Origin: Eledone cirrhosa | Taxonomy: Eukaryota | Length of the DNA stretch: 64,000 bases | NCBI GenBank assembly: GCA_964016885.1 | Contig: OZ024740.1 | Span: 394,010,001-394,074,000 of the forward strand | Direction of reading: 5' to 3' | In this document: piece by piece, positions 3,266 through 61,862 of the stretch | How the letters are laid out: every line of letters starts with the position of its first letter | Numbering within the stretch: position 1 is the first letter of the stretch | Program-made: the position numbers and the translations under genes | The notes under the pieces: generated by a model | What the model was told of the DNA's origin: nothing | What the model saw: only the letters and a program-made list of their open reading frames with translations | Databases searched by the model: none

Positions 3266-3324
<59 letters not shown>

Positions 3325-3332
3325 CAAAGGAA

Positions 3333-3433
3333 TTGTGGTAAGGAACTAAATGGACCATAATGCACCAGAGTACTCAATACTTAAGGTAGTAGAGTGGGAA
3401 ATAGGAAAAAGTATGACCCCATACTTTTTCCTA
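3333..3433 (-). mobile_element. Short HHR-associated element fragment with terminal fold-back (same family as 18436-18610, 21967-22020, 34908-35020)
   Basis: Shared sequence gtggtaaggaac...agtactc...gtagagtggg..taggaaaaagtatgacccc; flanked by (TA)n. Confidence 0.75.
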
Positions 3434-5204: not shown

Positions 5205-5260
<56 letters not shown>

Positions 5261-5319
5261 CTGTTGATTTAAAACTTCATTATTCACAAGTGTTTTTTAA
5301 GCTTCATATCATGTCTCCC

Positions 5320-5390
5320 TATTTTATCTGATGAGAACGCAGATATCATCCCATGACGATATTTGTTTTTGAAATGCGCATAATAAAATA
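5320..5390 (+). ncRNA. Type I hammerhead ribozyme (minimal, palindromic stem III)
   Basis: tattttat-CTGATGA-stem II (gcagatatc/gatatttgt)-GAAA-tgcgca-TA-ataaaata; perfect 8-bp stem I. Confidence 0.8.
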
Positions 5391-5592
5391 CTTGGAACCC
5401 TTTTATCCATCTTTTGATCTTATATTATTTATACTCCAATCCTACAAACTGTAGAGTGCTACTTATCCTATATCTGCATTGCTTTATTGTGCTACAATAA
5501 AACTCACCTCCTACACACATATATATGCATTCAAAAATGTGCTGTTGTTTTCTCTGACATTTAATTCATGCTATATATATATATATATATAT

Positions 5593-12235: not shown

Positions 12236-13148
12236 TATATATATATATATATAAAAAGTAAGTCCATAGAATCATTAGATAAAATATATACAGTATTTCT
12301 TCTCCCAATCAGCATAAATCAACCACACAAAAAAATCATTTAAACGAGGCTATAAGTTTAAAATATACTTATGAAGAAACAATAGATAAATGATATAGCT
12401 TTTTATCCGTGATTCACAGCTACAGAAAATATGCCTAGTATTTCTGATAGCCTGTAGAAATTGACTGACATACAGTTAACCATACATAATTAGGTACAAA
12501 ATCAAAGTTAGAAGAAAAAATGTACATAAACCTTACCAAAATCATCAAAATATCTCTACCCCCAAATTTTATATACTCCCGTAAGGTTGAGTAAAGCTTT
12601 AGGCAGTATTCGGCTGCACTTTCTAGCAACCAGCGTACTCACCGACAGGCACCAATTACAAACTTTCTGCCTTGACCACTGTCCTCGTGACGATTCTTAG
12701 CCATTTTGAATTCGTTTCTGGCGGGGATCATGTAAGAAAAATCTTTGTCCAATTGGGTTTATCTCCGGATGATTTCCAACCTCGTTGATTTATCCAAGAT
12801 CGGATATATCCAAAAAGTGAATGAAACCACCTGGGGTAGAGATATTTTGATGATTTTGGTATGTTTATGTACATTGTTTCTTCTAACTTTGACTTTGTAC
12901 CTAATTATGTATGGTTAACTATATGTCTAGTCAATTTCTACAGGCTATCAGAAATAATGGGTAAATTTTCTGTAGCTGTGAATCGCGGATAAAAAGCTAT
13001 ATCATTTATCTATTGTTTCTTCATAAGTATATTTTAAACTTATAGCCTCGTTTAAATGATTTTTATGTGGTTGATTTATGCTGATTGGGAGAAGAAATAC
13101 TGTATATATTTATCTAATGATTCTATGGACTTACTTTATATATATATA
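12236..13148. mobile_element. Fold-back insertion with ~320-bp inverted arms and a degenerate HHR (Penelope-like terminus)
   Basis: 12236-12562 is the reverse complement of 12833-13148; both ends lie in (TA)n; HHR-like tatctc-CGGATGA...GAAA-ccacctgggg-TA-gagata at 12760-12844. Confidence 0.75.
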
Positions 13149-15057: not shown

Positions 15058-15093
<36 letters not shown>

Positions 15094-15179
15094 AAAGTTC
15101 TATTTAAATTGTTGTGATACAACAAGCAAATATTTTTATAACTGATATAAAGCACTCAACAAATATTTGGAGTAAAAAT

Positions 15180-15549
15180 ACGATATTAACAAATGGAAAC
15201 TATATTTATAACTATATTTATAACAATATTTATAACTATATTTATAAAACCATATTTATTTCATTATACATATTTCAAGGACACCAAGTTAAATTATGGC
15301 GTGCTTTCATCAGATAAAATATAATATAGATCAGTTTTATAAATAAATATTGACATACCCTTAAAACTATCCGGGAGCTTCCAACAGTAATGGTTGCATT
15401 TTTTAAGGGTATGTCAATATTTATTTATAAAACTGATCTATATTATATTTTATCTGATGAAAGCACACCATAATTTAACTTGGTGTCCTTGAAATATGTA
15501 TAATGAAATAAATATGGTTTTATAAATATAGTTTCTATTTGTTAATATC

Positions 15550-15551
<2 letters not shown>
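15180..15551. mobile_element. Fold-back insertion with two inverted hammerhead ribozymes
   Basis: Arms 15180-15366 and 15401-15551 are reverse complements. Plus-strand HHR at 15446-15510 (tattttat-CTGATGA-stem II acacca/tggtgt-GAAA-tatgta-TA-atgaaata); mirror copy at 15257-15321. Confidence 0.8.
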
Positions 15552-15590
<39 letters not shown>

Positions 15591-16265: not shown

Positions 16266-16769
16266 GCAGTATGCAAGGGGTCTATGGAGGCAGAGATCCT
16301 GTACAGCAATAGCACATAGCACACATTGCAGTATGCAAGGGGTCTATGGAGGCAGAGATCCTGTACAGTAATAGCACATAGCACACATTGCAGTATGCAA
16401 GGGGTCTATGGAGGCAGAGATCCTGTACAGCAATAGCACATAGCACACATTGCAGTATGCAAGGGGTCTATGGAGGCAGAGATCCTGTACAGTAATAGCA
16501 CATAGCACACATTGCAGTATGCAAGGGGTCTATGGAGGCAGAGATCCTGTACAGCAATAGCACATAGCACACATTGCAGTATGCAAGGGGTCTATGGAGG
16601 CAGAGATCCTGTACAGCAATAGCACATAGCACACATTGCAGTATGCAAGGGGTCTATGGAGGCAGAGATCCTGTACAGTAATAGCACATAGCACACATTG
16701 CAGTATGCAAGGGGTCTATGGAGGCAGAGATCCTGTACAGTAATAGCACATAGCACACATTGCAGTATG
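16266..16769. repeat. 62-bp minisatellite, 8 copies
   Basis: Unit gcagtatgcaaggggtctatggaggcagagatcctgtacagYaatagcacatagcacacatt; only one variable position. Confidence 0.95.
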
Positions 16770-18398: not shown

Positions 18399-18435
18399 TA
18401 TATACATACATACATATATATACATATATATATAT

Positions 18436-18610
18436 AGGAAAAAGTATGACCCCGACGGCAGAGCTCAAGCCGTTTCAACGGCTATTTCTGGATAGCCGTC
18501 GAAACGGCTTAAGCTCTGCCGTCGGGGTCATACTTTTTCCTATTTCCCACTCTACTACCCTAAGTATTGAGTACTCTGGTGCGTTATGGTCCATCTGGTT
18601 CCTTACCACA
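18436..18610 (+). mobile_element. Short element with a ~105-bp near-perfect palindrome containing the 3' half of an HHR
   Basis: taggaaaaagtatgaccccgacggcagagc...gctctgccgtcggggtcatactttttccta; contains GAAA-cggc-loop-gccg-TC-ggggtc. Confidence 0.75.
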
Positions 18611-18684
18611 AATCCATTGTTATACATATATATATATATACATATATGAAAAAGAACACAAGAGCATCTACAACATCAAAAGAT

Positions 18685-20958: not shown

Positions 20959-21883
20959 TTGTTATACTTGGCGAGGGTCATATTTGTGTAATAATATTAC
21001 CAGAATTAATAACAGAACACACTCACTGTTTGGTTGGTTTTCGTTTCTGTGTCTTTTATATCGGTTAATTTAATTTATTCGGTCCTCAATGTTGCCATTG
21101 ACTGACCAACGGTCAAAAATACAGATACAATATAGACACAAACACATATATATAGTCTAACAAAGTTCTTTCGTTGCTCATCTGCAACATCGTCAGTGGT
21201 GCTATTATGTTTCCTCCCGTTGTATTGTATGCCTACGCCATCTTTATTTAGTCTGTTTATTTATTTATTTTTTTTGTCTTCTCTGCGCATGCGTTTGCGT
21301 GTGTGTATAGTCTTTTGTTTGATGTGTGTTCGTGTTTGGGTGACTGTGTATTGGTTATTGTATTATATCTTAGTTTACTAGTGTGTGTTTATATGTGTTT
21401 GTTGTTATTGTGCTTGTGTATGTATTTATTTATTTATTTATTTATACTCCTCTTAGGTCAGTGTTGTTTGTTTGGGTGTTGTTTTTATTCTATTCATATT
21501 TTCTGTTTAGCCTTGGCCTTCTAAGTTCTATTTCACTGGCCTCTCTGATTTGCCTATCTGCTGGGTCATTTCTATGTTTAGATATTATTCTAATTTCTAT
21601 GTTGTCTATGTTACCGTCGTGTTGTCTGGCATGTTCGTCTAGTACTGAACCGTTTGTTCGTCCTTTTAGTTCCCCCAGTGTTGGTCTAAATAAAAATGGC
21701 GTAGGCATACAATTGTATCTGTATTTTTGACCGTTGGTCAGTCAATGGTAACATTGAGGACAGAATAAATTAAATTAACCGATATAAAAGACACAGAAGC
21801 GAAAACCAACCAAACAGTGAGTGTGTTCTGTTATTAATTCTTGCAATATTATTACACAAATATGACCATCCCCAAGTATAACA
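20959..21883 (-). mobile_element. 5'-truncated Penelope-like element with an inverted copy of its 3' terminus
   Basis: Minus ORF 21490..21708 (SVLDEHARQH..IEIRIISK...RQIREASEIELRRPRLNRK) resembles the PLE GIY-YIG C-terminus; 20959-21130 is the reverse complement of 21713-21883; HHR-like CTGACGA-gttgc/gcaac-GAAA at 21160-21200. Confidence 0.8.
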
Positions 21884-21928
21884 ATATTTGTTCGACACAC
21901 GATTTCATATCAAGAACCTCGCAAAACT

Positions 21929-21968
<40 letters not shown>

Positions 21969-22047
21969 GAAAATGTATAACCCCGACGGCAGAGCTCAAG
22001 CCGTTTTGACGGCTATTTCTATCGTTATATATATATATATATATATA

Positions 22048-22770
22048 ATGGAAAATTTGAACAGGAACAAAACAGAGAGGCAGTACAACGAATGTTTATT
22101 AATTTCACGCTCTTGAGAGTGGGGTGATGGTGGGGAACGACGTTTCGGGCATAAGCCCTTCTTCAGGTGAAAAGTGTGTGGGAAGAGAGTTCAAAGGGTG
22201 TGTAGGGGAGTGGTGGAGAGACATATAGCGAAAAGGGGGTGGGAGGAAACGGTGCGAATGAAATTAAAAATAAAAGCATGATCAAAATAAAATAAAATTA
22301 AAATGGGGTAAAACAGGTGGTGGAAGGGTGTGGGGCGTGTAGGGGTGGTGGCGGGTGGAGTGGGGAGAGGGAGACGGGGTGTCCGAGCGGGGAGGGCTGA
22401 AGGTGGTGTGTGTGTGTAGGTGTACGTGTGTGTGTGTGTGTGTGTGTATGTGAAAGCAAGGGTTGGGAGAAGAACGGGGTTGCATGTTCAGGAAGAGGTG
22501 TGTGTGTGTGGGGGGGGGGGTCGGAGTGTGCGTGCGTGTGTGGATAGAGGGGGGGGGGAAGGAATCCGGAGGCTGAAGGTGTAAATATGTGGTGGAAAGC
22601 ACGTGTGTGGGGGGTTTAAGCGTGTTGTGGGTGTAGGTGGCGTGTGGGAAAAAAAATGTGTTTGGGTGTGTGTGTGGGTGAGTTATAAAGGTTATTCCGT
22701 AAGAAGATGTGGTTGAATGGTTGGTAAACTCCTAGGATGGTAGTTGATTCCGCGGTCAAGGTCCACATAC
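22048..22770 (-). mobile_element. Penelope-like 3' terminal fragment with minimal HHR
   Basis: Minus strand reads ac-CTGAAGA-a-gggc-ttat-gccc-GAAA-cg-TC-gt at 22137-22168; AC-rich UTR; flanked by (TA)n. Confidence 0.65.
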
Positions 22771-22872
22771 GATATATATATATATATTTATTAAAATAAC
22801 AGATTAATGTTTAAGCAAAGTTTAGTCTGCAAATTTATTATTATTACTATATATATATATATATATATATAT

Positions 22873-25561
22873 AAATTGGAATAAATGCTCTGAAATAGCG
22901 ATATATATGTGAATATAGACATAGAATATTCGAAAATATTCTGTATGTTTATAATAAACATTTTGAAGACCTAATCGCTATAGAATAGAATACGTCACGT
23001 ATTACAATTAGATTCTCGATAAAAGCAAGGGAAGTAATCTACGCGTTTCATTCTCGTTAGAAATCATCAGGACTACATATCCAGTGCTTTTATCGAGAAT
23101 GACACAGCTAGAGACTTATAGAATACTTAGCTGTGTACAGGAACTGGTTTGAAAGAGCGGTTGCCGGTCCGGCAGAAATTAGAAATTGGAATAAATGCTC
23201 TGAAATAGCGATATATATGTGAATATAGACATAGAATATTCGAAAATATTCTGTATGTTTATAATAAACATTTTGAAGACCTAATCGCTATAGAATAGAA
23301 TACGTCACGTATTACAATTAGATTCTCGATAAAAGCAAGGGAAGTAATCTACGCGTTTCATTCTCGTTAGAAATCATCAGGACTACATATCCAGTGCTTT
23401 TATCGAGAATGACACAGCTAGAGACTTATAGAATACTTAGCTGTGTACAGGAACTGGTTTGAAAGAGCGGTTGCCGGTCCGGCAGAAATTAGAAATTGGA
23501 ATAAATGCTCTGAAATAGCGATATATATGTGAATATAGACATAGAATATTCGAAAATATTCTGTATGTTTATAATAAACATTTTGAAGACCTAATCGCTA
23601 TAGAATAGAATACGTCACGTATTACAATTAGATTCTCGATAAAAGCAAGGGAAGTAATCTACGCGTTTCATTCTCGTTAGAAATCATCAGGACTACATAT
23701 CCAGTGCTTTTATCGAGAATGACACAGCTAGAGACTTATAGAATACTTAGCTGTGTACAGGAACTGGTTTGAAAGAGCGGTTGCCGGTCCGGCAGAAATT
23801 AGAAATTGGAATAAATGCTCTGAAATAGCGATATATATGTGAATATAGACATAGAATATTCGAAAATATTCTGTATGTTTATAATAAACATTTTGAAGAC
23901 CTAATCGCTATAGAATAGAATACGTCACGTATTACAATTAGATTCTCGATAAAAGCAAGGGAAGTAATCTACGCGTTTCATTCTCGTTAGAAATCATCAG
24001 GACTACATATCCAGTGCTTTTATCGAGAATGACACAGCTAGAGACTTATAGAATACTTAGCTGTGTACAGGAACTGGTTTGAAAGAGCGGTTGCCGGTCC
24101 GGCAGAAATTAGAAATTGGAATAAATGCTCTGAAATAGCGATATATATGTGAATATAGACATAGAATATTCGAAAATATTCTGTATGTTTATAATAAACA
24201 TTTTGAAGACCTAATCGCTATAGAATAGAATACGTCACGTATTACAATTAGATTCTCGATAAAAGCAAGGGAAGTAATCTACGCGTTTCATTCTCGTTAG
24301 AAATCATCAGGACTACATATCCAGTGCTTTTATCGAGAATGACACAGCTAGAGACTTATAGAATACTTAGCTGTGTACAGGAACTGGTTTGAAAGAGCGG
24401 TTGCCGGTCCGGCAGAAATTAGAAATTGGAATAAATGCTCTGAAATAGCGATATATATGTGAATATAGACATAGAATATTCGAAAATATTCTGTATGTTT
24501 ATAATAAACATTTTGAAGACCTAATCGCTATAGAATAGAATACGTCACGTATTACAATTAGATTCTCGATAAAAGCAAGGGAAGTAATCTACGCGTTTCA
24601 TTCTCGTTAGAAATCATCAGGACTACATATCCAGTGCTTTTATCGAGAATGACACAGCTAGAGACTTATAGAGTACTTAGCTGTGTACAGGAACTGGTTT
24701 GAAAGAGCGGTTGCCGGTCCGGCAGAAATTAGAAATTGGAATAAATGCTCTGAAATAGCGATATATATGTGAATATAGACATAGAATATTCGAAAATATT
24801 CTGTATGTTTATAATAAACATTTTGAAGACCTAATCGCTATAGAATAGAATACGTCACGTATTACAATTAGATTCTCGATAAAAGCAAGGGAAGTAATCT
24901 ACGCGTTTCATTCTCGTTAGAAATCATCAGGACTACATATCCAGTGCTTTTATCGAGAATGACACAGCTAGAGACTTATAGAATACTTAGCTGTGTACAG
25001 GAACTGGTTTGAAAGAGCGGTTGCCGGTCCGGCAGAAATTAGAAATTGGAATAAATGCTCTGAAATAGCGATATATATGTGAATATAGACATAGAATATT
25101 CGAAAATATTCTGTATGTTTATAATAAACATTTTGAAGACCTAATCGCTATAGAATAGAATACGTCACGTATTACAATTAGATTCTCGATAAAAGCAAGG
25201 GAAGTAATCTACGCGTTTCATTCTCGTTAGAAATCATCAGGACTACATATCCAGTGCTTTTATCGAGAATGACACAGCTAGAGACTTATAGAATACTTAG
25301 CTGTGTACAGGAACTGGTTTGAAAGAGCGGTTGCCGGTCCGGCAGAAATTAGAAATTGGAATAAATGCTCTGAAATAGCGATATATATGTGAATATAGAC
25401 ATAGAATATTCGAAAATATTCTGTATGTTTATAATAAACATTTTGAAGACCTAATCGCTATAGAATAGAATACGTCACGTATTACAATTAGATTCTCGAT
25501 AAAAGCAAGGGAAGTAATCTACGCGTTTCATTCTCGTTAGAAATCATCAGGACTACATATC
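22873..25561 (-). mobile_element. Retrozyme-like tandem array, ~8.7 x 310 bp, one type I HHR per unit (9 HHRs on the minus strand)
   Basis: Exact 310-bp period (aaattggaata at 22873, 23183, ...); tcatcag cores at 23064+310n; only one substitution noticed (~24673). Confidence 0.9.
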
Positions 25562-26993
25562 ATTCTCGATAAAAGCACTGGATATGTAGTCCTGATGATT
25601 TCTAACGAGAATGAAACGCGTAGATTACTTCCCTTGCTTTTATCGAGAATCTAATTGTAATACGTGACGTATTCTATTCTATAGCGATTAGGTCTTCAAA
25701 ATGTTTATTATAAACATACAGAATATTTTCGAATATTCTATGTCTATATTCACATATATATCGCTATTTCAGAGCATTTATTCCAATTTCTAATTTCTGC
25801 CGGACCGGCAACCGCTCTTTCAAACCAGTTCCTGTACACAGCTAAGTATTCTATAAGTCTCTAGCTGTGTCATTCTCGATAAAAGCACTGGATATGTAGT
25901 CCTGATGATTTCTAACGAGAATGAAACGCGTAGATTACTTCCCTTGCTTTTATCGAGAATCTAATTGTAATACGTGACGTATTCTATTCTATAGCGATTA
26001 GGTCTTCAAAATGTTTATTATAAACATACAGAATATTTTCGAATATTCTATGTCTATATTCACATATATATCGCTATTTCAGAGCATTTATTCCAATTTC
26101 TAATTTCTGCCGGACCGGCAACCGCTCTTTCAAACCAGTTCCTGTACACAGCTAAGTATTCTATAAGTCTCTAGCTGTGTCATTCTCGATAAAAGCACTG
26201 GATATGTAGTCCTGATGATTTCTAACGAGAATGAAACGCGTAGATTACTTCCCTTGCTTTTATCGAGAATCTAATTGTAATACGTGACGTATTCTATTCT
26301 ATAGCGATTAGGTCTTCAAAATGTTTATTATAAACATACAGAATATTTTCGAATATTCTATGTCTATATTCACATATATATCGCTATTTCAGAGCATTTA
26401 TTCCAATTTCTAATTTCTGCCGGACCGGCAACCGCTCTTTCAAACCAGTTCCTGTACACAGCTAAGTATTCTATAAGTCTCTAGCTGTGTCATTCTCGAT
26501 AAAAGCACTGGATATGTAGTCCTGATGATTTCTAACGAGAATGAAACGCGTAGATTACTTCCCTTGCTTTTATCGAGAATCTAATTGTAATACGTGACGT
26601 ATTCTATTCTATAGCGATTAGGTCTTCAAAATGTTTATTATAAACATACAGAATATTTTCGAATATTCTATGTCTATATTCACATATATATCGCTATTTC
26701 AGAGCATTTATTCCAATTTCTAATTTCTGCCGGACCGGCAACCGCTCTTTCAAACCAGTTCCTGTACACAGCTAAGTATTCTATAAGTCTCTAGCTGTGT
26801 CATTCTCGATAAAAGCACTGGATATGTAGTCCTGATGATTTCTAACGAGAATGAAACGCGTAGATTACTTCCCTTGCTTTTATCGAGAATCTAATTGTAA
26901 TACGTGACGTATTCTATTCTATAGCGATTAGGTCTTCAAAATGTTTATTATAAACATACAGAATATTTTCGAATATTCTATGTCTATATTCAC

Positions 26994-26999
<6 letters not shown>
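25561..26999 (+). mobile_element. Inverted continuation of the 310-bp retrozyme array, ~4.6 units (5 HHRs on the plus strand)
   Basis: Exact reverse complement of the left run; gtagtc-CTGATGA-tttctaacgagaat-GAAA-cgcg-TA-gattac at 25586-25628 and every +310. Confidence 0.9.
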
Positions 27000-27024
<25 letters not shown>

Positions 27025-27101
27025 TAGTAAATTTGAAGATTAAAATCCAAAGAGGGCTCGATAAGGATAAATATATATCAAATATATAAAACCGTAGAGC
27101 A

Positions 27102-27194
<93 letters not shown>

Positions 27195-28004
27195 ATAAAG
27201 AAAATGTGTTTCGTTGTAGATGCTAAAGAGTCCTTTATTAATAAAGCTGTGATACATATTCCAATGAAGATCATGTAACCCGTCACGCGATCATCAGACA
27301 CCATCATTATGTAACAGCGCTACGTTTTCGAGGCAATCCAAAGATGAAAAGGAAGGGAACGGACAAAAATATTATTTTCGTAGCTTATATACACCCGTAT
27401 TTGTTGTTATATTGGGGGATAGGAATTCTGTCAGTATTACCAATAAAAAACACACGCCATATCATTTTGACCTTATCTTTATTAGTTATTGGTTAGTTTG
27501 TCAACATTCTTTCGTCACACATTTCACGACCTCTTCAATGACTATTTGTTCTCTTTTGTCTTTATCTGTTGCTCCATCTTGTCATTTTTTTCTTTTTGTG
27601 GTATGTTTTTGTGTTTCGTGTCTGCGCATGCACCTGTGTAGGTGTTGTGTCTTTGTGTTTGTTATGTTTATGTATATTTTATGTGTGTGTGTGTGGGGGG
27701 GTATCTTTAACTGTTTGTCAACAACAGAGACACCACCACCACCACCACCACCACCACCATCACCAACAACAACAATAGCAATAGTGATGGTGATAGAAAC
27801 GAACACACAAACACAGAAAGAAACAACTATAGCAGCATTACACACTGGGGTAAAGGAAATGCTAAGTTAGCGAGGGAAAGGGTTACAAAGACTAAACGTA
27901 GAGACAACACAAACCCACGCATAGGGAATAACAGAAAGGACTCCATCAACAACGCACACACAGACAACTTCACCACCATCGCCAACACCACCACCATCAG
28001 CAAG

Positions 28005-28415
28005 AATTGTTTCTAGTTTTGGCACAAGGCCAGCAATTACCCCAATGCATTTCTGGTACTTTATCTTATCGACCCAGCAAGGATGAAATGAAAGGCAAAG
28101 CCAACATCGGCGGGACTTGAACCCAGAACGCAAAGGGCCATAACTCTATGCTGCAGAGCATGGTGTCTGACGCTCTACCAATACTGCCAATCAACCGCAT
28201 TTATTAATATAATTAATAATAATGGTTTCTTATATAGGCACAAGGTCAGCAATTTTGGGGGAGGAGAAAGTCGATTAAATCGACTCCAGTGCGTGACTGG
28301 TACTTTATTTTATCAACCCCGTAAGGATGAAAGGCAAAGTTAACCTCGGCGGGATTTGAACTCTATGCTGCAAAACATGGTGTCTGACGCTCTACCAATA
28401 CTGCCAATCCACCGC
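28005..28415 (-). mobile_element. Two tandem tRNA-derived SINE copies
   Basis: Family core sequence present twice. Confidence 0.85.
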
Positions 28416-28439
28416 TCTTATTAATATAATTAATAATAA

Positions 28440-29340
28440 TTACACCCTAAAGCAAATATTAATAGACTATACACGAAGAGAAAGAATGGTAACAGAGGTC
28501 TCATCAGTGTGGATCAATGTATAAGGAGTAAATGGAGAACACTTGTATAATATTTGGTAAAGAGTGGCGAAGAGTTGTTGCAATGTGCAGCAGAAGATAT
28601 GGGTATAAATGCAGTAGGAATGGTTGGAAAGGAAGAATTTAACTAAATATATGAAGAGGAACGAACGGAAGATCTTCTAGTAATCAGAATGTATGTTCAA
28701 TTTGAAAGAATACACAGGATATCAAGGATAAAATATCATAGTAAACATGGCATAATCAAGACGATTTAGAAGGTGCCACTGAACGCCTTATAGTTGCAGC
28801 GCAAGACCAAACTCTTGCTCCAAGTTCCGTGAAGTAAAACATCTACAAATTTTCTGAAATGCAGGCTTTGGGGAAAGAATGTGGAATATGTAATATATTT
28901 GGTAAATGGATGTGAGAGCTTTGGGTAAAAAGAATACAAGCGCTGCCATGATAAAGTTTGTTTATACTTTCATTGGCTTTTGTGTCATAAATACCAATAA
29001 GAAGCCATAAACAATTGGTATGAGCATGTGCCTCGTAAAGTGATGCAGGAGGATGGGAAAGCAACGATGTTCTTGGATTATGATTTTCAAAATGATAGAG
29101 TAATTGAGCATCACCGACCAAATATTCTCGTATTCAACAAGAAAGAGAAATAATGTCAGATCACTGACGTGAGCTCACCAAATAACATGAATATTGCGAA
29201 TAAGGAAATTGAAAAAATCACCAAGTACTCTGAATTGAAATTGGAACTGGCAAACATTTTTAAATGCAAGAGATTAATGTGAAAGTGATACCAGATGTGA
29301 TCAGTAATTAAGGTCAATCTCATTGAAACTTCATAACTTC
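28440..29340 (+). pseudogene. Decayed R4-like LINE C-terminal fragment (RLE region)
   Basis: Remnant motifs AAQDQTL, RHDKV, RPNILV and ITDVSSP across stops and frameshifts. Confidence 0.6.
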
Positions 29341-30730
29341 TTAAAATGACTGGAAATATCATACAAAAGACGGCTTTCGACAATATACCACATTCATGGA
29401 TTTTGAAATCGCTGACCATTTTCAAAATTTCTCCTGTAATTTCAAAGTTTCTTAAATATGAGGTCATTGTGGAACCCGAATCTAAAATTATATCATTCTA
29501 TTGGATTACTAAGTTCAAACAATATTAACATCGTCTGTAGTATCTTTTAAAGTGACTCATTTTCACCTCTAATATTTTACATAGCTCAAATACCCCTTAC
29601 AACCGAACTTAACAGAACAAATTGCGGATATAAAGTTTACAACAGGAAATAAGCCATTAATTTTATATAAATAAGCTAAAGTTTTGTGGGAAAGACAATG
29701 AAGAGCTTGGATGTATTGTCCATACTGTAAAAGCATTCAGTAATGAGATAGGGATTGAGTTTGGGCTTGATAAACGTGCCAAGACCACTTTCAAGAAAGG
29801 GAAATTGATAAACACAAATTCAGTCGAATTGGATGTTGAAATAGTTATAAAAGAACTGGAGCAAGAAGAAACCTATAAATACTTAGGTATAAATGAAGGC
29901 TTCGGCATTCAGTAATATAAAAGAGAAGATAAGGAAGGAATGTTATAGGAGAGTACGAGCAGTTCTGATATCTAAGCTAAATGCACATAACAAGGTGTTA
30001 GCCATTACTCCCTTAGAAGTTTCAATTGTTATTTATAGCTTCAATGTATTGAATTGGAATATCAATGAAAGAAAGAGAATTGACACTAAAATTTGTAAGT
30101 TGCTGACTTGTAATAAGATGCTCCACATACAGGCAGATATGGATCATATTTACCTTCCCAGAACTCAAGAAGGTAGAGGCTTGACCCAATTTGAACTGCC
30201 TTAGAAAACCACCTCAATTGGATTGACCAAATATCTTGGAGCAACAAATGAATGAATGCTGAAACTTGTTGAAAAATATGAGAGCAGTAAGAAGCTTCAT
30301 TCGATCTTAAAAGAGAGCAAACAATTTTCTACTGATCTCATGACTAATATTCAGGCTGGAAAGACTGAGGAAACTGCGGCAACTTTTGTTGCAAAGCATG
30401 TAAAATTAGTGGCTAAGAAAAATGGGATGAACAATGAATATCATGGTGGGATCAGAAACCTCTGCATGGCAAATATGTGGCCCGTATCAAACAAGATAAT
30501 GTTGACCAAAAGCACACCCATCAATGGCTATATAGTTCAGGGCTAAAGGCTGAGAATAAAGGTTTCATCTAAGTTGCCCAAGATCAAATCTTATTAACTC
30601 GCAACTATTAGTCCAATGTAGTGAGAAATATAGTTGATCCAAAGTGCTGATTCTGCAATGAAACAGTGGACTACTTAATCTCTGGATGTAAAGCTTTAAC
30701 ACCAGTAGAGTATAAATCAAGGTATGATGT
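29340..30730 (+). pseudogene. Decayed R4-like LINE RT/C-terminal fragment
   Basis: FGLDK.A, YKYLG, RVRAVLISKLNAHNKVLAI, YLPRTQEGRGL, AQDQ and a C..C.ETVDYLISGC remnant. Confidence 0.7.
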
Positions 30731-30859
30731 GAGTGAAAAATATTTAGAAGAAATTTGTGCAGATACCCGTCGTATATATGTATGTGTGTCTATCTCTATT
30801 TCTATATAAAAGAGAGAAAGAGAAGAAAAATATAGATAGTTGAATTAATATGTAAACAT

Positions 30860-32520
30860 ATGTAAACAATGGGGAATTAGAACATAGAATTTTACATTTG
30901 CTTGAAAAATTTCAAGAGGATTTAAGTAAAATGATTAGAAATAAGAAATTAAAAAAGACTGCTGCATACTAAACTGGATTATTGAAGGAGTAAGATAAAA
31001 CAATTGATAAAACAATTGACAAGTTAAGTATTGCCTGTATAGCCGGATAAAATGAAGGACATTTATACTGTGGATTCTTACAAGAAACTGAAAAGTAATT
31101 ATAAAAAATAGACCATTACTACTAATTTAAATGATATTACCGGAGAAGGTAAGATTATTTAGTTGAACAGCTTGATTTAGATAAATATACTGAGCAAATA
31201 GACAGATAATTCCTATATTTAATTTAAAGGACCATGAGCTAAATATTAATACTCACCAGTCCATTCGGTTAATTAACTCTTCTATATCAGGTCTAGGGCG
31301 AATAAGTAAACAAGAATTAGATAAAGTAATACCATTTGCAAAGAAAAATATAGGTCTTAGTTTTGGGGGCGGCTTGACTGTTTGAAAAATAAGAAATGAA
31401 CTAAATCTTTGCAATTTGATATCAGAAGTTATTATTTTTCATAATCTCTGATTCTACTAAATAAAGCTCTAATCCAAGAAAGAAAGGTTATTATTAAACT
31501 AACCAGTCCTTGCTGTTAGACGCACGTTAATAAAGCGTGATGCATTTTATGGCAGTAGGAAATATAGACAAAAACCTCGGTATAACTATGGGGTCTAATC
31601 GCAGCTCCAGCTACGGATCGTTTTGGGTTGTATATTTTATATAAATTGAAAACTGAATATTCAAATTTGGGAGATGGTTTATATCAGGCATGTCAATAAT
31701 GCGACCCGGGGCCAGCATGCGGCGCTTTACAAGCACACCTGCGGCCCGCACAAAGGTTTTTACAGCGCGAGCAAGTTTTATCTTTGTAAAATTAGTTGTC
31801 ATGTGTGGCCCTCAGACAACACTTATGTGACCCATGTGGCCCTCGGGGAAGCCTCAGTTTGAGATGCCTGGTTTATATAAAGACGACACCCCGTTACCAT
31901 TAAGGATATTAGTCAACCCACCTGAGGGAAAATCAGTAAAAATATGTATACATTTTAAAAGAAATTTAGTTTATCTATTAAAATTGATAAAACATTAAAA
32001 CTGTAAACATATTTGATGTAGCATTAGAATTATGTATCAGGATTTTATAACATTTTATAACTTTATTGCGAATCTACATTATGTATATAGACGTGAAAAG
32101 AACTTGTTCATGGATGATGGCCAGCTTGATGCTGGATGTAAGTCAAGGGGACATACTATCAGTCATTGCCTGAAGAATTCATTCATTGGTCTTTATAAAG
32201 AGATATATTAAAGCAAAAACTTGTCCGTTAAAAACCCATTAAAAATGCATGAGTAATGAGATGCAAAGAAAAGTAATATAAAAAAACGCATGCCATATAA
32301 TCAGTAAATAGTTTGTGTTATTGATTTGGCAGATCCACAGAAAGTTTTGTACTGAAAGCGGAAGGGAAATTCATACTTTGTGACGTTTAGTACTTAGCAG
32401 TATTTTTAATGAATAAATAAGCTCTAAATAGAAAAAGAAAAAAACAGGTCGTAGACTTGTTTTGTGAAGAACCAGTCACATGAATTAATACTAAATAATA
32501 AATTAAAGCTGCCTTATTAT
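30860..32520 (+). pseudogene. Highly decayed Penelope-like RT (GLYxDD type, Naiad-like)
   Basis: Remnants IRLINSSISGLGRISKQELD, LQFDI, LLNKAL, ITMGS; GDGLYKDD is restored when the MITE at 31685-31870 and one TSD are removed. Confidence 0.55.
31685..31870. mobile_element. hAT-type MITE (186 bp)
   Basis: TIRs caggcatgtcaa / ttgagatgcctg; perfect 8-bp TSD gtttatat at 31677-31684 and 31871-31878. Confidence 0.9.
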
Positions 32521-32600
32521 ACCATCTAAATATTTGACATGCTTTGTCAGTGCAGAATATCTATTTATCTATCTATTGTGTTTCTATTTCTCTCTCTCTC

Positions 32601-32656
<56 letters not shown>

Positions 32657-33382
32657 TGAAAAATGGCGTGCTGCGTTGTTGCGAATATGAACATATGAAT
32701 AAAAATAGACCGAGAAACAAGAATGTCCTTCATCAGTAGTCTACTGATTATCATTGGTATTTCTTCGCATTAAAGACTAGATACCTAAAATCAGTGCCAG
32801 CGATAACTAAATTAAGTTATCGGGACAGGAAAACAGAGGAAAGGAAACAAACAACATGGTAGTAATGCAACATAAAGAGAGGAAAAGAGAGACAAGTCAA
32901 TGAATCTTGTCCGACAAATCAAATGACGAGAAGAAACAGACGCGTCCAGTATCTGCACAGGAAGGGAGAGTGCTCTATGTATGCTACATATATAATAAGA
33001 AGATCCCGTTAAGGGTGAAAGCAGCGATTCTTTGCCTGTTATTTTTATAAATATTTGCTCTACGGTTCTTATATATTTGATATATATTTATACTTATCGA
33101 GCCCTCTTTGGATTTTAGTCTTCAAATTTATTATTACTATATATATATATATTTAGATCTAGATTAAATTCATTTGATTTATCTTAATTTTGGATATATA
33201 TATATATAAGTATATATATATATGTATATATATATATACGTATATATATATGTATGTATATATGTATATATCTATATCTGTATCTATCTAAGTATATATA
33301 TATATGTATATATATATATACGTATATATATATGTATGTATATATGTATATATCTATATCTGTATCTATCTATCTATCTATC

Positions 33383-33807: not shown

Positions 33808-33813
<6 letters not shown>

Positions 33814-33911
33814 ATATAGAAAAGCTTCTACAGGACTAGAACTGTTTCATTCAATGAGAAATCATTGAATGAAATAGTTCTAGTCCTGTAGAAGCTTTTC
33901 CATATTAAATA
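33808..33911. repeat. ~50-bp-arm hairpin (fold-back of an HHR 3' half)
   Basis: aaaagcttctacaggactagaactgtttcattcaatga-gaaa-tcattgaatgaaatagttctagtcctgtagaagctttt, next to (TA)n. Confidence 0.8.
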
Positions 33912-33981
33912 TTCATACTCTGTTTTGTATATTGAGTACCTTACTTACTGTGGTTATCCTCGATTGAACCCAGGATAAACT

Positions 33982-34133
<152 letters not shown>

Positions 34134-34831: not shown

Positions 34832-35690
34832 TATATATATATATAAATATATATATATATACGGGGAAACAAAATATATATATATATATATATATAAAAC
34901 AAAGAAAGTGTGGTAAGGAACCAGGTGGACCATAACGCACTAGAGTACTCGATACTTAGGGTAGTAGAGTGGGTAATAGGAAAAGAGTCAGGACCTCGAC
35001 GGCTGAGTTCCGGCCGTTTAGAAAGCTAGATCCGAACTCCGGATTGGAACATTGGAATCTTTGAAAGGACTCGGCTGCTATTTCTAGCTGTCGATAATCC
35101 TATTCACGCCACTGGGATGACGCTGGTACGATGTGTGTAGTTTTAAAAATGCAACACGTGCGACGGGTCATTCGCAGATTTGCATTTGATGTCTAAACAC
35201 AGATAGTTAAATCTTCTCCCTTGCTGAAGATGCGAGGTTTGACTATTGTGAGTTTACGGATTAATGGTGAAATATATTTCTTTAATGAAATATATACAAG
35301 AAAGAGTAATCATTTAAAAAATATTTGAAGTTCGAGTTAAACTTTAATTAGTTACCTACCTAGCTGTGTGTGGTTACACACTTTACAAATTATCCCCTGT
35401 GATTGGTTCATGTGTTCAATTTCTAGTTGATATATATAATTCAAGAGATAAGAGTAACATGGTTGTCTGTACAATAAGGACTTTATTCACAGTGCTGACA
35501 ATTGTTTCTTTGATCTGGTAGGTCTAGAGTTCACTAATCGCTAGATGTTGCGTCAATCGAACTCCAATACTTTGTTTATAACAGGTTAATTCATCAGAGC
35601 AAGCGAATGTGAGGATAATATACAATACTTTTATAGAGGAATGGTATTAGACCAGAACAATAATATCAATAACAAAATAAAAATTGATAT

Positions 35691-43112: not shown

Positions 43113-44487
<1,375 letters not shown>

Positions 44488-44510
44488 AAATGTGTGTACT
44501 CCTTGGTACA

Positions 44511-45240
44511 GTGCTTTCAACAAATTTATTTTCTTCACAAAATCCAAAAAGAATTTTTCTTAAAAAAAATTATTTTATAAATTAAGTTGTTGGTTGTTGG
44601 TTAGGTCTTAGGAGTTCTTGGTTAACGTAGGAGGTATTGTTTCGTTTTTAGAAAGACCTTTCACGCTGAGGTGCGCTTGTCAAACTGATGTGTATGTGGT
44701 GTGTTGTTCTATATATAGGGATTTAACATGTCTGTGGTGTGGTGGTGGTTTCTTTTCTCCCCTTTAATAAGTGCATGGGTGTAGGTGTATTGAAAAAGTG
44801 TTCATAGCAGTAATGAGTTGAGACGGTGAGTAGGGTTGGGTGGGGAGAAATGTAGCAAGTGCGGCCTGCCCCGGTCATTCTCGAAAAATTCCTTTATTCA
44901 GGGGAAAAAGCTTTTAGCATTGCCTTTGTGTTGAGAATGGTCACGGGCAAATCGAACCTGTCAAGTTTGTGAATAATTATTTTTTTCTTTCTTTCCTGAA
45001 GAATTTTTCTACGTCCATCCCAAAGTTAGTCCTTTGTTCAACACACACATATGTGTGCATATACGTACATACACACACGGGCATATGTAGGAATATATAG
45101 GCACACACCATCAATCACACACCCATGTACAAATACATACACAAAAACATATAGAGACACATATAAAAACACACATACACATACGTACACACACGAATAT
45201 GTACTCATACCTCCACATGGGCATATATATATATACACAC
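44511..45240 (-). mobile_element. Inverted copy of the Penelope-like element 3' terminal region
   Basis: Reverse complement of ~48830-49565. Confidence 0.9.
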
Positions 45241-45436
45241 ACATATATATACACACACACATATTAATAACAATAATAATAATAATAATAACAACAATAA
45301 TAATAACGACAACAACAATAATAATATACATATACATATATATATACATATACACGCACACATATAAACATATCTATACACACACACACACACGATAGCA
45401 ACTAACAGCGCTGCGATCGAATGTGGCTTTTTAGCC

Positions 45437-48266
45437 AACAACAACCAGATATTGGGTAACCCCAAACACACAACTACATACAGACCCAATACTCAACACC
45501 AGAACCAGATACAACCACTGCCATAACACCAAGAACAATCACCGGAGACAAAATCAAAGACACATGAATACTGAACGAATCAACAGAAGAACCAGACCCC
45601 CATACAGCAACGGCCACGCAAGAGTCTATCGCCCAACCAGTTACCGACATGAAGTTCCGGCGGGCCAAAGGTTTCACCACAACAGAAACACCCCTATCCC
45701 AAATGGTCTAGGGGCCTCGCACCAAATGAAAGAAAAAAAGAAAAAAGCACCACCTTTCAAGTGGCACCTGACGAGAAAGAACTAATCGAACCAAAAATAA
45801 TCAATATATCAGCCAAGAAATTAACACAACCAGAAATACAACTGTTAGAAAATGGACTGAAGTTCACTCCCACTCCGAAAGCAGATACAGCCGATGTTAT
45901 AAAAGACATAGAAGAATACTGTCGAAAATTACGCTTAGGAGAATTCTTCCAGGGTGTACAATACGAGGAAGAATCACTGGTGAAAAACAAAAAGAACTTC
46001 ACACACCCGCTAAATAGAGATAAATACCTGGAGGAATACATAACCTGCCTTCGCCGATCAGCACGTACAAATACGGCCGAAACGAAACACAAATGCAACA
46101 TCCCTACAGACCAACTACTAGCATTGAACAAGCTACAAAGAGATTCCTCAATAATAATAAAAGAAGCGGACAAAGGTGGAGCAATCGTCATCATGGACAC
46201 AAACCACTACAAAGATATGGTCCTAGCACACTTGAATGACGAAAACTTCTACAGGAAAATCACTAAAAACGAAGAAAGGAAATCGAGGAACCAAATAGGC
46301 AAACTAACAAAGTACCAAAACAACCTAACACCAAAAGAAGTAGATTACCTAACCAACTTCGAAATGAAAACCAGCAATTTCTATGGATTACCAAAAATTC
46401 ACAAATCCAGAGAAATCCAAAACAACATAAAAGGGAAAAATACATCATACATCGAAGCACCAAAACCGACAGACTTAAAATTACGCCCCATTATTGCTGG
46501 CCCAGCCTCATGCACACAACGTCTAAGCAACCTATTAGACATCATACTCAAACCCCTATGTAAAAAAGTTCCAAGCTACAGAGATGATATGGAATTCCTT
46601 AACTATATCCCCCAAAAAGTACACCAGGATACAATCCTAGTCAGTTTTGATGTAATAAGCCTGTACACTAACATCCCACACGACCTAGGGATTGAAGCTG
46701 TGGACTTCTGGATTACAAAACACTCAAGTCACATTTCAGAAAGATTCCCCAAAGAATTCATCTTGGAAGGACTTAAATTAGTATTGGAAAACAACCACTT
46801 CCTCTTTGACAACGAACTTTATCTACAAATAAAAGGAACAGCCATGGGTACCAAAGTGGCCCCTACATATGCAACGCTCGTTATGGGTCACTTAGAGGCA
46901 AAATTATATTCCCAACTACAGATAACATTCAGTAACGACTTCGCCTTCTACATTAATAAAAACTGGAAACGTTACCTAGATGACTGCTCCATCTTCTGGA
47001 ACAGAAGCCAAACAGACCTACACACATTTTATTCGATCCTAAACAGGCTTCACGAAGCTATACAATTCACTATGGAATGTAACGAAAAGGAACTGCCCTT
47101 TCTAGATATCCTCATCATTAAAGAAGGGGAAAATATCATAACGGACCTATTTTGCAAACCTACTGACACACACCAATACTTAAATTTCCGGTCAGCACAC
47201 CCCTTACATACGAAAAGGAACATTCCCTTCAACATGGCAAAGCGCATCTGCACTATAGCAACACACCCCGTACTACAAGAAAAAAGATTATGTGACCTGA
47301 AAAAATTCCTTAAAAAACAAGAATACCCGATGAAACTCATCAACGCAGCCATCTCCAAGGCTAAGAACATCCCAATAACAACACTGAGAAAACCAAACCC
47401 ACAACATAAAAAAGAAAACCCTGCTATCTCTTTTGTCATCACTCACAACCCAGGGAACATCAACATTGTGAAAACTGCTAAGCAGTATCTCCCGATTCTA
47501 CAGCAATCTACCAAAATGAATGCACTCTTAAAAAACACACAGATAATTTATAGCAGACGCCAAGCACCCAACCTTAAAAAACTAATTACCAAGGCAAAAT
47601 TTACGACCAACATGGAATCAATGCAAGTGACGAAATGCGGGGACCCTAGATGTGGAACCTGTGAACTCATCGAAGAGGGCAAACAGTTGTCATTCAAAAA
47701 CCATGATAATTTCAAGGTCAATGCTAACATGAACTGCAAAACGAAAAACCTAATATATTGCGCAACATGTCCACAGTGTAAAGAGTATTACATTGGGGAA
47801 ACCGGAACGGGATTACATGATAGAGTCCGGGTACATAAACAACAGATTAAAGACCCCACAGTCAGAAATACCACATGTAGCGCACACTTTGCATCATGCG
47901 GGAAGGGAAAATTCACAATCTTCTCTTTCTTCAAGATATAGTCGGATAACGAACATTTCCGCAGATATAAAGAAGAATTCTTCATTGAAAAATTTAAACC
48001 ACTACTGAACACGAAAAAATGAATTAACACTCGGAGGTAAAATTCCATTTCACTACCCCCCCCCTCTTCTTATGTATACACACGAATATCTGAATGAACG
48101 GTGAGACACACACATATGTGTGTGTAGGGATGTATGGATGTATGTACGTGTGGGTATATATGTATGTGGGTGTGTGTATGTGTGTGTGTGTGTGGGTGTG
48201 TGTGTATATATATACATATATGTATGGATGTGTGTATGTTTGTATGTGTGTGTGTATATATATATG

Positions 48267-48343
<77 letters not shown>

Positions 48344-48378
48344 GTATATGTACATGTATGTATGTGTATGTTTGTGTA

Positions 48379-48425
<47 letters not shown>

Positions 48426-48718
48426 ATATGTATATATGGATGTATGTGTGTATATGTGTGTGTATGTATGCATGTATGTGTGAACGGAGGGGTATATATA
48501 CGGACATATGTATATGTGTGTGTGTGTGTGTATACACGTGCGTGTGTGTGTGTGTGTATGTGTGCGTGTATGTGTATATATGTATATTTAGTTATGTATC
48601 TTTATGTGTGTATATGTATGTGTGTGTATGTATGTATATGTATGTATATATGTATATTTATATATATATATATATAAATGTATATATATATATATATAAA
48701 TATATATGTGTGTGTGTG

Positions 48719-48751
<33 letters not shown>

Positions 48752-49565
48752 ATGTGTGTGTATGTGTATATGTATGTATATATATATATGTATATATATA
48801 TATGTATGTATGTATATGTGTATATATATGTGTGTGTATATATATATATATATGCCCATGTGGAGGTATGAGTACATATTCGTGTGTGTACGTATGTGTA
48901 TGTGTGTTTTTATATGTGTCTCTATATGTTTTTGTGTATGTATTTGTACATGGTGTGTGATTGATGGTGTGTGCCTATATATTCCTACATATGCCCGTGT
49001 GTGTATGTACGTATATGCACACATATGTGTGTGTTGAACAAAGGACTAACTTTGGGATGGACGTAGAAAAATTCTTCAGGAAAGAAAGAAAAAAATAATT
49101 ATTCACAAACTTGACAGGTGCGATTTGCCCGTGACCATTCTCAACACAAAAGCAATGCTAAAAGCTTTTTCCCCTGAATAAAGGAATTTTTCGAGAATGA
49201 CCGGGGCAGGCCGCACTTGCTACATTTCTCCCCACCCAACCCTACTCACCGTCTCAACTCATTACTGCTATGAACACTTTTTCAACACACCTACACCCAT
49301 GCACTTATTAAAAGGGGAGAAAAGAAACCCCCACCACACCACAGACAAGTTAAATCCCTATATATAGAACAACACACCACATACACATCAGTTTGACTAG
49401 CGCACCTCAGCGTGAAAGGTCTTTCTAAAAACGAAACAATACCTCCTACGTTAACCAAGAACTCCTAAGACCTAACCAACAACCAACAACTTAAATTATA
49501 AAATAATTTTTTTTAAGAAAAATTCTTTTGGGATTTTGTGAAGAAAATAAATTTGTTGAAAGCAC
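45437..49565 (+). mobile_element. Penelope-like element (probably Neptune type), 5'-truncated
   Basis: Single RT + GIY-YIG ORF, microsatellite-rich 3' region and an inverted terminal copy upstream; inserted in (TA)n. Confidence 0.9.
45761..48022 (+). CDS. Penelope-like reverse transcriptase + GIY-YIG endonuclease (in-frame TAG at 47939-47941)
   Basis: Motifs GLKFTPTP, ADKGGAIVIMD, FYGLPKIHK, LRPIIA, SFDVISLYTNIP, GTAMGTKVAPTYA, RYLDD, LPFLDI, KPTD, Cys linker KCGDPRCGTC, and LIYCATCPQCKEYYIGET. The frame continues after TAG as SDNEHFRRYKEEFFIEKFKPLLNTKK. Confidence 0.92.
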
Positions 49566-49598
49566 AAGTGAAGCCATTTTTTCTACCCCCCTATCTTA

Positions 49599-49623
<25 letters not shown>

Positions 49624-49629
<6 letters not shown>

Positions 49630-50478
49630 TTGGAGCTCTGAAATAGCAATATATATATGGATGTATATATAATGTATTTTGCAATACACTTTATGCTTAA
49701 TTAAAAGCATTTTGAAGACCGTATGCTATTGTTTTAGAGTAGTGACAAATTCACTTACTTTAATTTCAGCAAACAGGGGAGATAAGCCGACAAGGCCTTG
49801 TTTCGCTTTTGTTGAAGCTTATCAAGGCTAACTACCCCTCCTGTCTACTGAGGTTACTGATGTTATATTATTATAGAATTCTAGTAAATAATCAGGAACT
49901 GATTATACAGAGCGATTGTTGGTCAGGCAGAAATTAAAAATTAGAATTGGAGCTCTGAAATAGCAATATATATATGGATGTATATATAATGTATTTTGCA
50001 ATACACTTTATGCTTAATTAAAAGCATTTTGAAGATCGTATGCTATTGTTTTAGAGTAGTGACAAATTCACTTACTTTAATCTCAGCAAACAGGGGAGAT
50101 AAGCCGACAAGGCCTTGTTCGCTTTTGTTGAAGTGTATTGCAAAATACATTATATATACATCCATATATATATTGCTATTTCAGAGCTCCAATTCTAATT
50201 TTTAATTTCTGCCTGACCAGCAATCGCTCTGTATAATCAGTTCCTGATTATTTACTAGAATTCTATAAGAATATAACATCAGTAATCTCAGTAGACAGGA
50301 GGGGTAGTTAGCCTTGATAAGCTTCAACAAAAGCGAAACAAGGCCTTGTCGGCTTATCTCCCCTGTTTGCTGAGATTAAAGTAAGTGAATTTGTCACTAC
50401 TCTAAAACAATAGCATACGGTCTTCAAAATGCTTTTAATTAAGCATAAAGTGTATTGCAAAATACATTATATATACAT

Positions 50479-50488
<10 letters not shown>
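49624..50488. mobile_element. 317-bp retrozyme-like repeat (1.6 units + ~1.1 inverted unit) with U3-A8 variant HHR
   Basis: ttagaattgg at 49624 and 49941; inversion at 50131-50133; HHR agcc-TTGATAA-gctt/aagc-GAAA-caaggccttg-TC-ggct at 50310-50354 (plus) and ~49785-49829 (minus). Confidence 0.85.
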
Positions 50489-50546
<58 letters not shown>

Positions 50547-61632: not shown

Positions 61633-61651
61633 ATTATTAGTGTTGTTTGTT

Positions 61652-61862
61652 GCGGTTCTGTAGTGTTGGTGGTAGAATTGGTGTTGGTGTTGGCGGTTCT
61701 GTAGTGTTGGTGGTAGAATTGGTGTTGGTGTTGGCGGTTCTGTAGTGTTGGTGGTAGAATTGGTGTTGGTGTTGGCGGTTCTGTAGTGTTGGTGGTAGAA
61801 TTGGTGTTGGTGTTGGCGGTTCTGTAGTGTTGGTGGTAGAATTGGTGTTGGTGTTGGCGGTT
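61652..61862. repeat. 41-bp minisatellite, ~5 copies
   Basis: Unit gcggttctgtagtgttggtggtagaattggtgttggtgttg. Confidence 0.95.

Follow-up and report, generated by a model that had tools for sequence, protein, structure and literature searches.

Mobilisation of retrozymes by Penelope-like elements (PLEs), by way of a circular RNA, has been proposed (PMC7229834; PMC7761336). It has been backed by co-occurrence and by terminal-repeat homology in a preprint, which also suggests that the arrays grow through local amplification (bioRxiv 10.64898/2026.07.22.740005). The enzyme that moves animal retrozymes, as well as the formation of their arrays during or after insertion, are called open questions (PMC7229834; bioRxiv 10.64898/2026.07.22.740005). 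More is known about the insertion of PLEs themselves. Their insertions often comprise an inverted 5'-truncated copy with a tail of 30-40 bp at only one end, the tail being read as endonuclease resolution of a DNA intermediate by staggered cuts, and (TA)n is the preferred target of some PLE clades (PMC8557442). A PLE in which one of the inverted terminal repeats carries a 31-bp tail, with a microhomology junction, has also been described; self-priming was proposed for such inverted junctions, and one-sided tails are also present in PLE copies with ordinary target duplications on their flanks (PMC3846280). When purified, a PLE protein cleaves the two strands of its target and extends both, and its endonuclease favours ATT (PMC11167929). 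In this in vitro system, a Poseidon element with an ATT target, two internal RNA start sites of the reverse transcriptase (RT) bound the tail, the hammerhead cut is neither needed nor used, and initiation takes place without homology to the cut DNA (PMC11167929).

The window analysed here, a stretch of 64,000 nucleotides from Eledone cirrhosa, is AT-rich eukaryotic DNA, rich in microsatellites and LINE fragments. Two arrays were found in it, F1 (array 1, 22873-27001, unit of 310 bp) and F2 (array 2, 49623-50490, unit of 317 bp), whose units share 60% identity overall. In both, type I hammerhead repeats have been inserted into (TA)n as inverted, head-to-head arms. The inverted head-to-head copy, as in 5'-truncated PLE insertions, is thus present in both arrays, and all four outer array ends adjoin (TA)n. 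The units are AT-rich, tandem and devoid of ORF, their length lying within the 150-450 bp and their composition below the 50% GC of animal non-LTR retrozyme units. An ORF scan detected no ORF of at least 120 aa over either array, hence none encoding the RT and GIY-YIG endonuclease of an autonomous PLE. As in retrozymes, each unit carries a type I hammerhead with a stem I of about 6 bp, a stem II of 4 bp and a short palindromic stem III. Judged by their sequence, the arrays would thus be classed with the animal non-LTR retrozymes (PMC7229834).

The hammerheads were located with our own descriptor scan, which returned one in each full unit of both arrays, including 14 cores in array 1. The F1 ribozyme, for example at 25896-25938 on the plus strand (predicted cut after 25932), has a 6-bp stem I, the core CUGAUGA/GAAA, a 4-bp stem II and a palindromic stem III, ACGCGU. 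In the F2 ribozyme (50307-50357, plus strand, predicted cut after 50350), a U3-A8 pair, which is tolerated in hammerheads, replaces C3-G8, and the palindromic stem III has 12 nt. An Rfam search of the arrays gave nothing at gathering score. The description of metazoan type I hammerheads working as dimers agrees with both ribozymes (PMC4209133). The hammerhead reads on the plus strand in the right arms and on the minus strand in the left arms, so that every outer end is an RNA-3' end, which is where target-primed reverse transcription begins. A SINE mobilised by a LINE has only one 3' end, which carries poly(A) or a simple repeat, and one orientation; the arrays do not fit this pattern, given their two outward RNA-3' ends at two internal positions of a tandem unit.

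The left arm of array 1 (22873-25561, RNA sense on the minus strand) holds 8.7 head-to-tail units of 310 bp and the right arm (25560-27001, RNA sense on the plus strand) 4.65 units. The two arms overlap by 2 nt in the middle (25560-25561) and form a palindrome with a 19-nt spacer; their units are identical except for one substitution in one unit, that is, one substitution in 4.1 kb. Array 2 consists of 1.6 units of 317 bp on the left (49623-50133, minus strand, predicted cut at 49789) and 1.1 units on the right (50131-50490, plus strand), with a central overlap of 3 nt (50131-50133). Its copies differ by 1-1.5%, and in the stretch with three copies, taken as a test for separate RNA templates per arm, each difference is private to one copy. 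On the left, the target is (TA)13 for array 1 (22848-22873) and (AT)13 for array 2 (49599-49624). On the right, the (AT)4 block of array 1 (26994-27001) continues into the target (TA)n up to 27019, and the (AT)5 block of array 2 (50481-50490) merges with (TA)n up to 50541. The flanking DNA of both arrays is unique and not mirrored; a target-site duplication is unreadable within (TA)n.

When end positions are counted from the predicted ribozyme cut, they fall into two classes. The short ends, which end the right arms, lie inside the internal AT block, at 132-139 in F1 and 131-140 in F2, and are resolvable only to that block. The long ends, which start the left arms, lie at 166-167 in F1 and 164-166 in F2 (163-165 in F1 numbering), both in an AAT(T) motif. 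The two classes are 24-36 nt apart, according to the point of the AT block at which the join is placed, and the tail that separates them is present at one end only in each array. That of F1 (22873-22900, minus strand) extends 27-28 nt past the AT block and 35-36 nt from its start (34-36 nt across F1 and F2), and that of F2 (49623-49648, minus strand) 24-26 nt past the block and 34-36 nt from its start. Since the insertions are inverted, left and right are arbitrary, and what counts is the combination of one long and one short end.

In a simulation with four random ends, both end pairs matched by chance with a probability of 0.0025 within 5 nt and of 0.009 within 10 nt, and this value was 0.035 with the AT-block ends taken as given, i.e. 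as a microsatellite effect. The end match is real and non-random. The initial annotation had claimed that both arrays stop at two shared homologous positions, and this is confirmed, at 131-140 and 163-167, with a chance probability of 0.0025-0.035. It was also right that the other array ends lie in an internal AT block merging with the target (TA)n, 24-36 nt from the long ends, and that neither end is at the hammerhead cut; ends at the cut are indeed ruled out by the distance of 131-167 nt. Its anchor for the long ends, an 'aattgga' block, needs correction: the match is 5 nt out of register, the gapless alignment setting F1 ATTCCAATT over F2 ATTCTAATT, and what holds is the agreement of the long ends within 1-4 nt. 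A common TTCCAAT end motif across families was dropped because its positions in F1 and F2 are not in register.

Both end classes lie within the best-conserved stretch of the unit, as previously stated, with 22-25 of 30 positions identical in windows over columns 121-210 versus 60% overall, and the F1/F2 alignment is gapless across the end region. The conserved domain, at 25991-26128 (plus strand) in one F1 unit, is a candidate recognition element for the RT. It comprises, in this order, an AUAGC/GCUAU helix that closes the GGUCUUCAAAAUG loop and hairpins, the AT block and an AGAGC/GCUCU helix. In both predicted circular folds (z of about -4.9 and -5.4), this last helix, with pair probabilities of 0.72-0.82 and 0.75, closes a 38-nt loop holding the long end, mostly unpaired. 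The hairpins show compensatory changes between F1 and F2: of 40 predicted pairs, 6 have both partners altered, and 4 of these 6 are in the hairpins just upstream of the AGAGC helix. Covariation support is modest, since two sequences only are compared, and it is to this modest degree that the domain appears structurally conserved though the units are only 60% identical. The conserved AGAGC...GCTCT stem pointed out earlier is thus predicted to pair in both circles and, being invariant, gains no support from covariation. The conserved block as a cis element recognised by an RT, also suggested in the initial annotation, is a candidate.

The ends at two shared spots about 30 bases apart correspond to the PLE footprint, so a Penelope enzyme with a circular RNA as its template probably inserted the arrays. 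Our preferred reading, held with some reserve, is that the two arrays are non-autonomous hammerhead retrozymes probably inserted by a PLE RT-endonuclease, and that their two fixed ends are probably its internal RNA start sites. A PLE enzyme supplied in trans would bind the conserved domain and cut both strands of a (TA)n tract. At the short end, one DNA end would pair over 8-10 nt with the (AU)4-5 block of the RNA and prime there; at the long end, the other DNA end, pairing over 1-2 nt, would prime about 30 nt further downstream in the unpaired loop, giving rise to the tail. Each cDNA would then make 1 to 9 turns of the RNA, whether circular or multimeric and uncleaved, and both cDNAs would be joined through the 2-3 nt of microhomology at the centre. 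The near-undiverged multimeric arms fit better with synthesis at insertion than with later expansion; gene conversion could also keep the arms alike. This reading draws on two insertions from related families and on published analogy. Internal initiation by a trans-acting Penelope-like RT, as first put forward for this locus, agrees with published PLE data (PMC8557442; PMC11167929), is already known for PLEs, and bears here on two insertions. The associated idea of priming through TA homology suits the short end with its 8-10 nt of pairing but not the long end with 1-2 nt, and initiation without homology was found in vitro (PMC11167929).

This asymmetry in pairing would also be expected from the main competing explanation, which we regard as unlikely, in which the RT starts only once, at the long end. 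The second arm would then be copied from the first cDNA by fold-back or template switching and attached to the opposite side of the break, its AT block annealing to the (TA)n overhang there, and the short end would be a joining site rather than a start. In each array the arm carrying the long end exceeds the other in length (8.7 vs 4.65 units and 1.6 vs 1.1 units), and the identical arms of array 1, with their 19-nt spacer, agree with such an event, as does the self-priming proposed for PLE inverted junctions (PMC3846280). However, array 2 has no tight hairpin at its centre, and the in vitro work found extension on both target strands and an RT start at each boundary of the tail (PMC11167929).

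The same biochemistry, which maps both tail boundaries to RT starts on the RNA (PMC11167929), argues against a second PLE-based alternative, less probable than the former, in which the tail is produced by staggered endonuclease cuts resolving a DNA intermediate and not by two RT starts. It was published later than the report where this interpretation of the tail was given (PMC8557442). The AAT(T) motif at both long ends would nevertheless suit a purified PLE endonuclease that favours ATT (PMC11167929).

Other insertions in the window bear on how general the one-sided tail may be. From a flank screen restricted to the window, ten inverted pairs with (TA)n flanks were picked by eye among the matches listed. 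Seven of these ten have one long and one short end, five of them besides F1 and F2, from four other families. One, at 15091-15553, is a third inverted hammerhead element in (TA)n, whose ends lie at 50 and 174 nt past the cut, with an offset of about 89 nt in homologous sequence. Two more, at 20960-21933 and 33810-33985, have one-sided extensions of 45 and 73 nt, respectively, and a 4-nt ATAT overlap at the short end. The last two, at 3324-3432 and 18434-18626, belong to one family and show offsets of 79-85 nt. All these offsets (45-89 nt) are outside the 30-40 nt range. The short end has 8 nt in common with the TA run in F1, 10 in F2, at most 2 in the 15091 element, 4 in those at 20960 and 33810, and 3 in those at 3324 and 18434; an overlap of 3-4 nt is thus seen in four of the five insertions other than F1 and F2, for a background probability of 0.07 for at least 3 nt (among the matches listed). 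A one-sided tail with a short-end TA overlap in seven of the pairs listed points to a general habit in the window, its length being family-specific. Hammerheads were seen only in F1, F2 and the 15091 element among these seven pairs. Of the remaining three listed pairs, two are symmetric and the third corresponds to the arms of the PLE found in the window, where divergence affects both ends. Located in (TA)n, the two symmetric pairs of inverted termini, at 12253-13137 (about 320 bp) and 27019-33138 (about 100 bp), look more like DNA-transposon or MITE ends, and the latter pair encloses decayed LINE sequence.

Several further repeats were noted in the window. The family of 3324-3432 and 18434-18626 also includes pieces at 21967-22026 and 34896-35100, with three short and three long ends in all, 79-85 nt apart and all in (TA)n; no hammerhead was found in these four pieces. 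An unrelated hammerhead monomer lies between TA runs at 5260-5572, with an internal AT block 137 nt past the cut and an end at 189 nt, which is the spacing of F1 and F2, in the absence of sequence similarity. Just left of array 1, on the minus strand, a PLE-type terminal fragment (22048-22770) bears a minimal hammerhead (cut near 22139) and ends in (TA)n 91 nt later. Two near-perfect tandem repeats, at 16266-16769 (62 bp, 8 copies) and 61636-61862 (41 bp, 5.5 copies), had no hammerhead found in them.

The seven pairs bear on the possibility that both arms started at the long end and that one tail was later lost when the internal AT block and the (TA)n beside it slipped against each other, or that the match is partly due to chance. 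AT-tract microhomology favours such deletions between tracts, and with the AT-block ends discounted the chance probability is about 0.035. Against this, array 1 is very young, with its single substitution in 4.1 kb, and exactly one long end is present in seven of the ten inverted pairs picked by eye among the matches listed. One-sided tails are moreover found in PLE copies with ordinary target duplications (PMC3846280). Tail loss appears improbable, ranking just behind the staggered cuts. Last and very improbable is the absence of any one-step retro-insertion, whether through local growth by unequal exchange from a single PLE terminal repeat, a route proposed in bioRxiv 10.64898/2026.07.22.740005, or as an assembly or fold-back artefact, long palindromes being hard to assemble: the arrays are surrounded by unique sequence without mirroring, several sites distinguish the two arms of array 2, and local growth would leave PLE-type ends in place and bear solely on the origin of the multimers.

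A potential partner was sought in the window. A decayed Neptune/Nematis-like PLE (44484-49598, ORF 45653-47941) adjoins array 2 across the (AT)13. Its inverted terminal repeats are about 99% alike near the ends, the last 28 and 33 nt being wholly different. A possible degenerate hammerhead lies near 49390-49425, and a LINE 3' end with its microsatellite tail is mirrored on either side of the left terminal repeat (44154-44361 and 45222-45436, 95% identical). No sequence common to the terminal repeat of this one PLE of the window and the F1/F2 conserved core was found, and it was rejected as a parent on this basis. The initial annotation had suggested searching PLE termini for two 13-mers of the unit; neither is carried by any PLE in the window, where they have 1 and 2 two-mismatch hits outside the arrays versus 1.35 and 1.88 expected, i.e. 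at chance level. No relatives of the PLE protein were found in viral contigs.

Relatives of F1 were looked for elsewhere. A pattern scan for F1/F2 relatives returned none in viral contigs and none in prokaryote genomes; eight metagenome hits were treated as chance, because none has (TA)6 and none aligns beyond one 21-nt piece. Of 24 listed runs, 20 contain the F1 unit (window 25861-26200), with 65-100% of 31 sampled words present; these runs come from 17 studies and carry 18 organism codes, and none is recorded as RNA. In two contig sets (X2 and X10), it forms one unbranched circle each, of about 310-340 nt, with no loose ends and with 0 and 2 substitutions, which is compatible with a tandem array or an RNA circle alike. 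The two substitutions in X10, at window positions 25909 and 25917, fall in hammerhead stem II/loop II, and one turns a U-U opposition into an A-U pair, lengthening the stem. Two Hi-C runs (X23 and X24) gave 0 reads in 1.9 Gb each, and another run of the same organism code contains 100% of the words. The presence of F1 across organism codes may reflect close relatives, contamination, prey or parasite DNA, or horizontal spread.

A more ambitious version of the preferred reading, namely of insertion by a PLE from two internal start sites, can be put forward tentatively. The array would be written in one step by a PLE rolling round a 310-nt RNA circle from both cut (TA)n ends, the (AU)4-5 stretch serving as a telomerase-like template together with a second, unpaired site 30 nt off. 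The conserved domain of 140 nt would then be a minimal signal for hijacking the PLE, and the near-identical circles under 18 organism codes may mark a family passing from host to host.

The known PLE tail is thus found here on ORF-less multimeric retrozymes, where no earlier report was found. A literature search by title and abstract start, in which subscription journals are thinly covered, returned no report of retrozyme tails or inverted ends, and the words 'tail' and 'initiation' have zero occurrences in the available text of bioRxiv 10.64898/2026.07.22.740005. A PLE-specific insertion signature on such arrays is more direct evidence than co-occurrence, and a small candidate cis element and two predicted start sites are now named for the existing in vitro PLE assay. 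The result should be pleasing rather than surprising to a specialist, since PLEs are already known to have the tail and to initiate internally.

The arrays resemble animal non-LTR retrozymes in having a tandem unit that is short, low in GC and endowed with a single type I hammerhead, in being non-coding and in the predicted structured circle (PMC7229834; bioRxiv 10.64898/2026.07.22.740005); the inverted arrays, tails and start sites are features without description in the available parts of these two sources. With PLE insertions (PMC8557442; PMC3846280) they share head-to-head arms, a tail at one end, a (TA)n target, a microhomology junction and a type I hammerhead upstream of the 3' end, whereas they have no ORF, both their arms are tandem multimers of one 310-317 bp unit, and nothing was found in their sequence that links them to a coding PLE. 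MRC1 and other non-autonomous Chlamys PLEs are likewise non-coding passengers of PLEs with multicopy head-to-tail insertions; they are, however, green algal, and their 3' end matches an autonomous partner, a match not found for the arrays (PMC8557442). The telomerase-type priming of Athena and Coprina PLEs offers an analogy, with an internal stretch complementary to the target repeat near the hammerhead, but these elements lack the endonuclease and join telomere ends, whereas the arrays sit in internal (TA)n targets (PMC8557442). The Anolis Poseidon PLE studied in vitro (PMC11167929) has, like the arrays, a tail bounded by two internal sites, the cut itself being no end. In Poseidon, these sites follow the hammerhead cut at a distance of about 85 nt or more, compared with 131-167 nt in the arrays, and the Poseidon start is an AC-rich stem-loop without target homology, whereas one of the array sites is an (AU)4-5 tract able to pair with (TA)n. 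The asymmetry of the arrays is that of the published PLE tail, and the mechanism is thus one known for PLEs rather than a new one.
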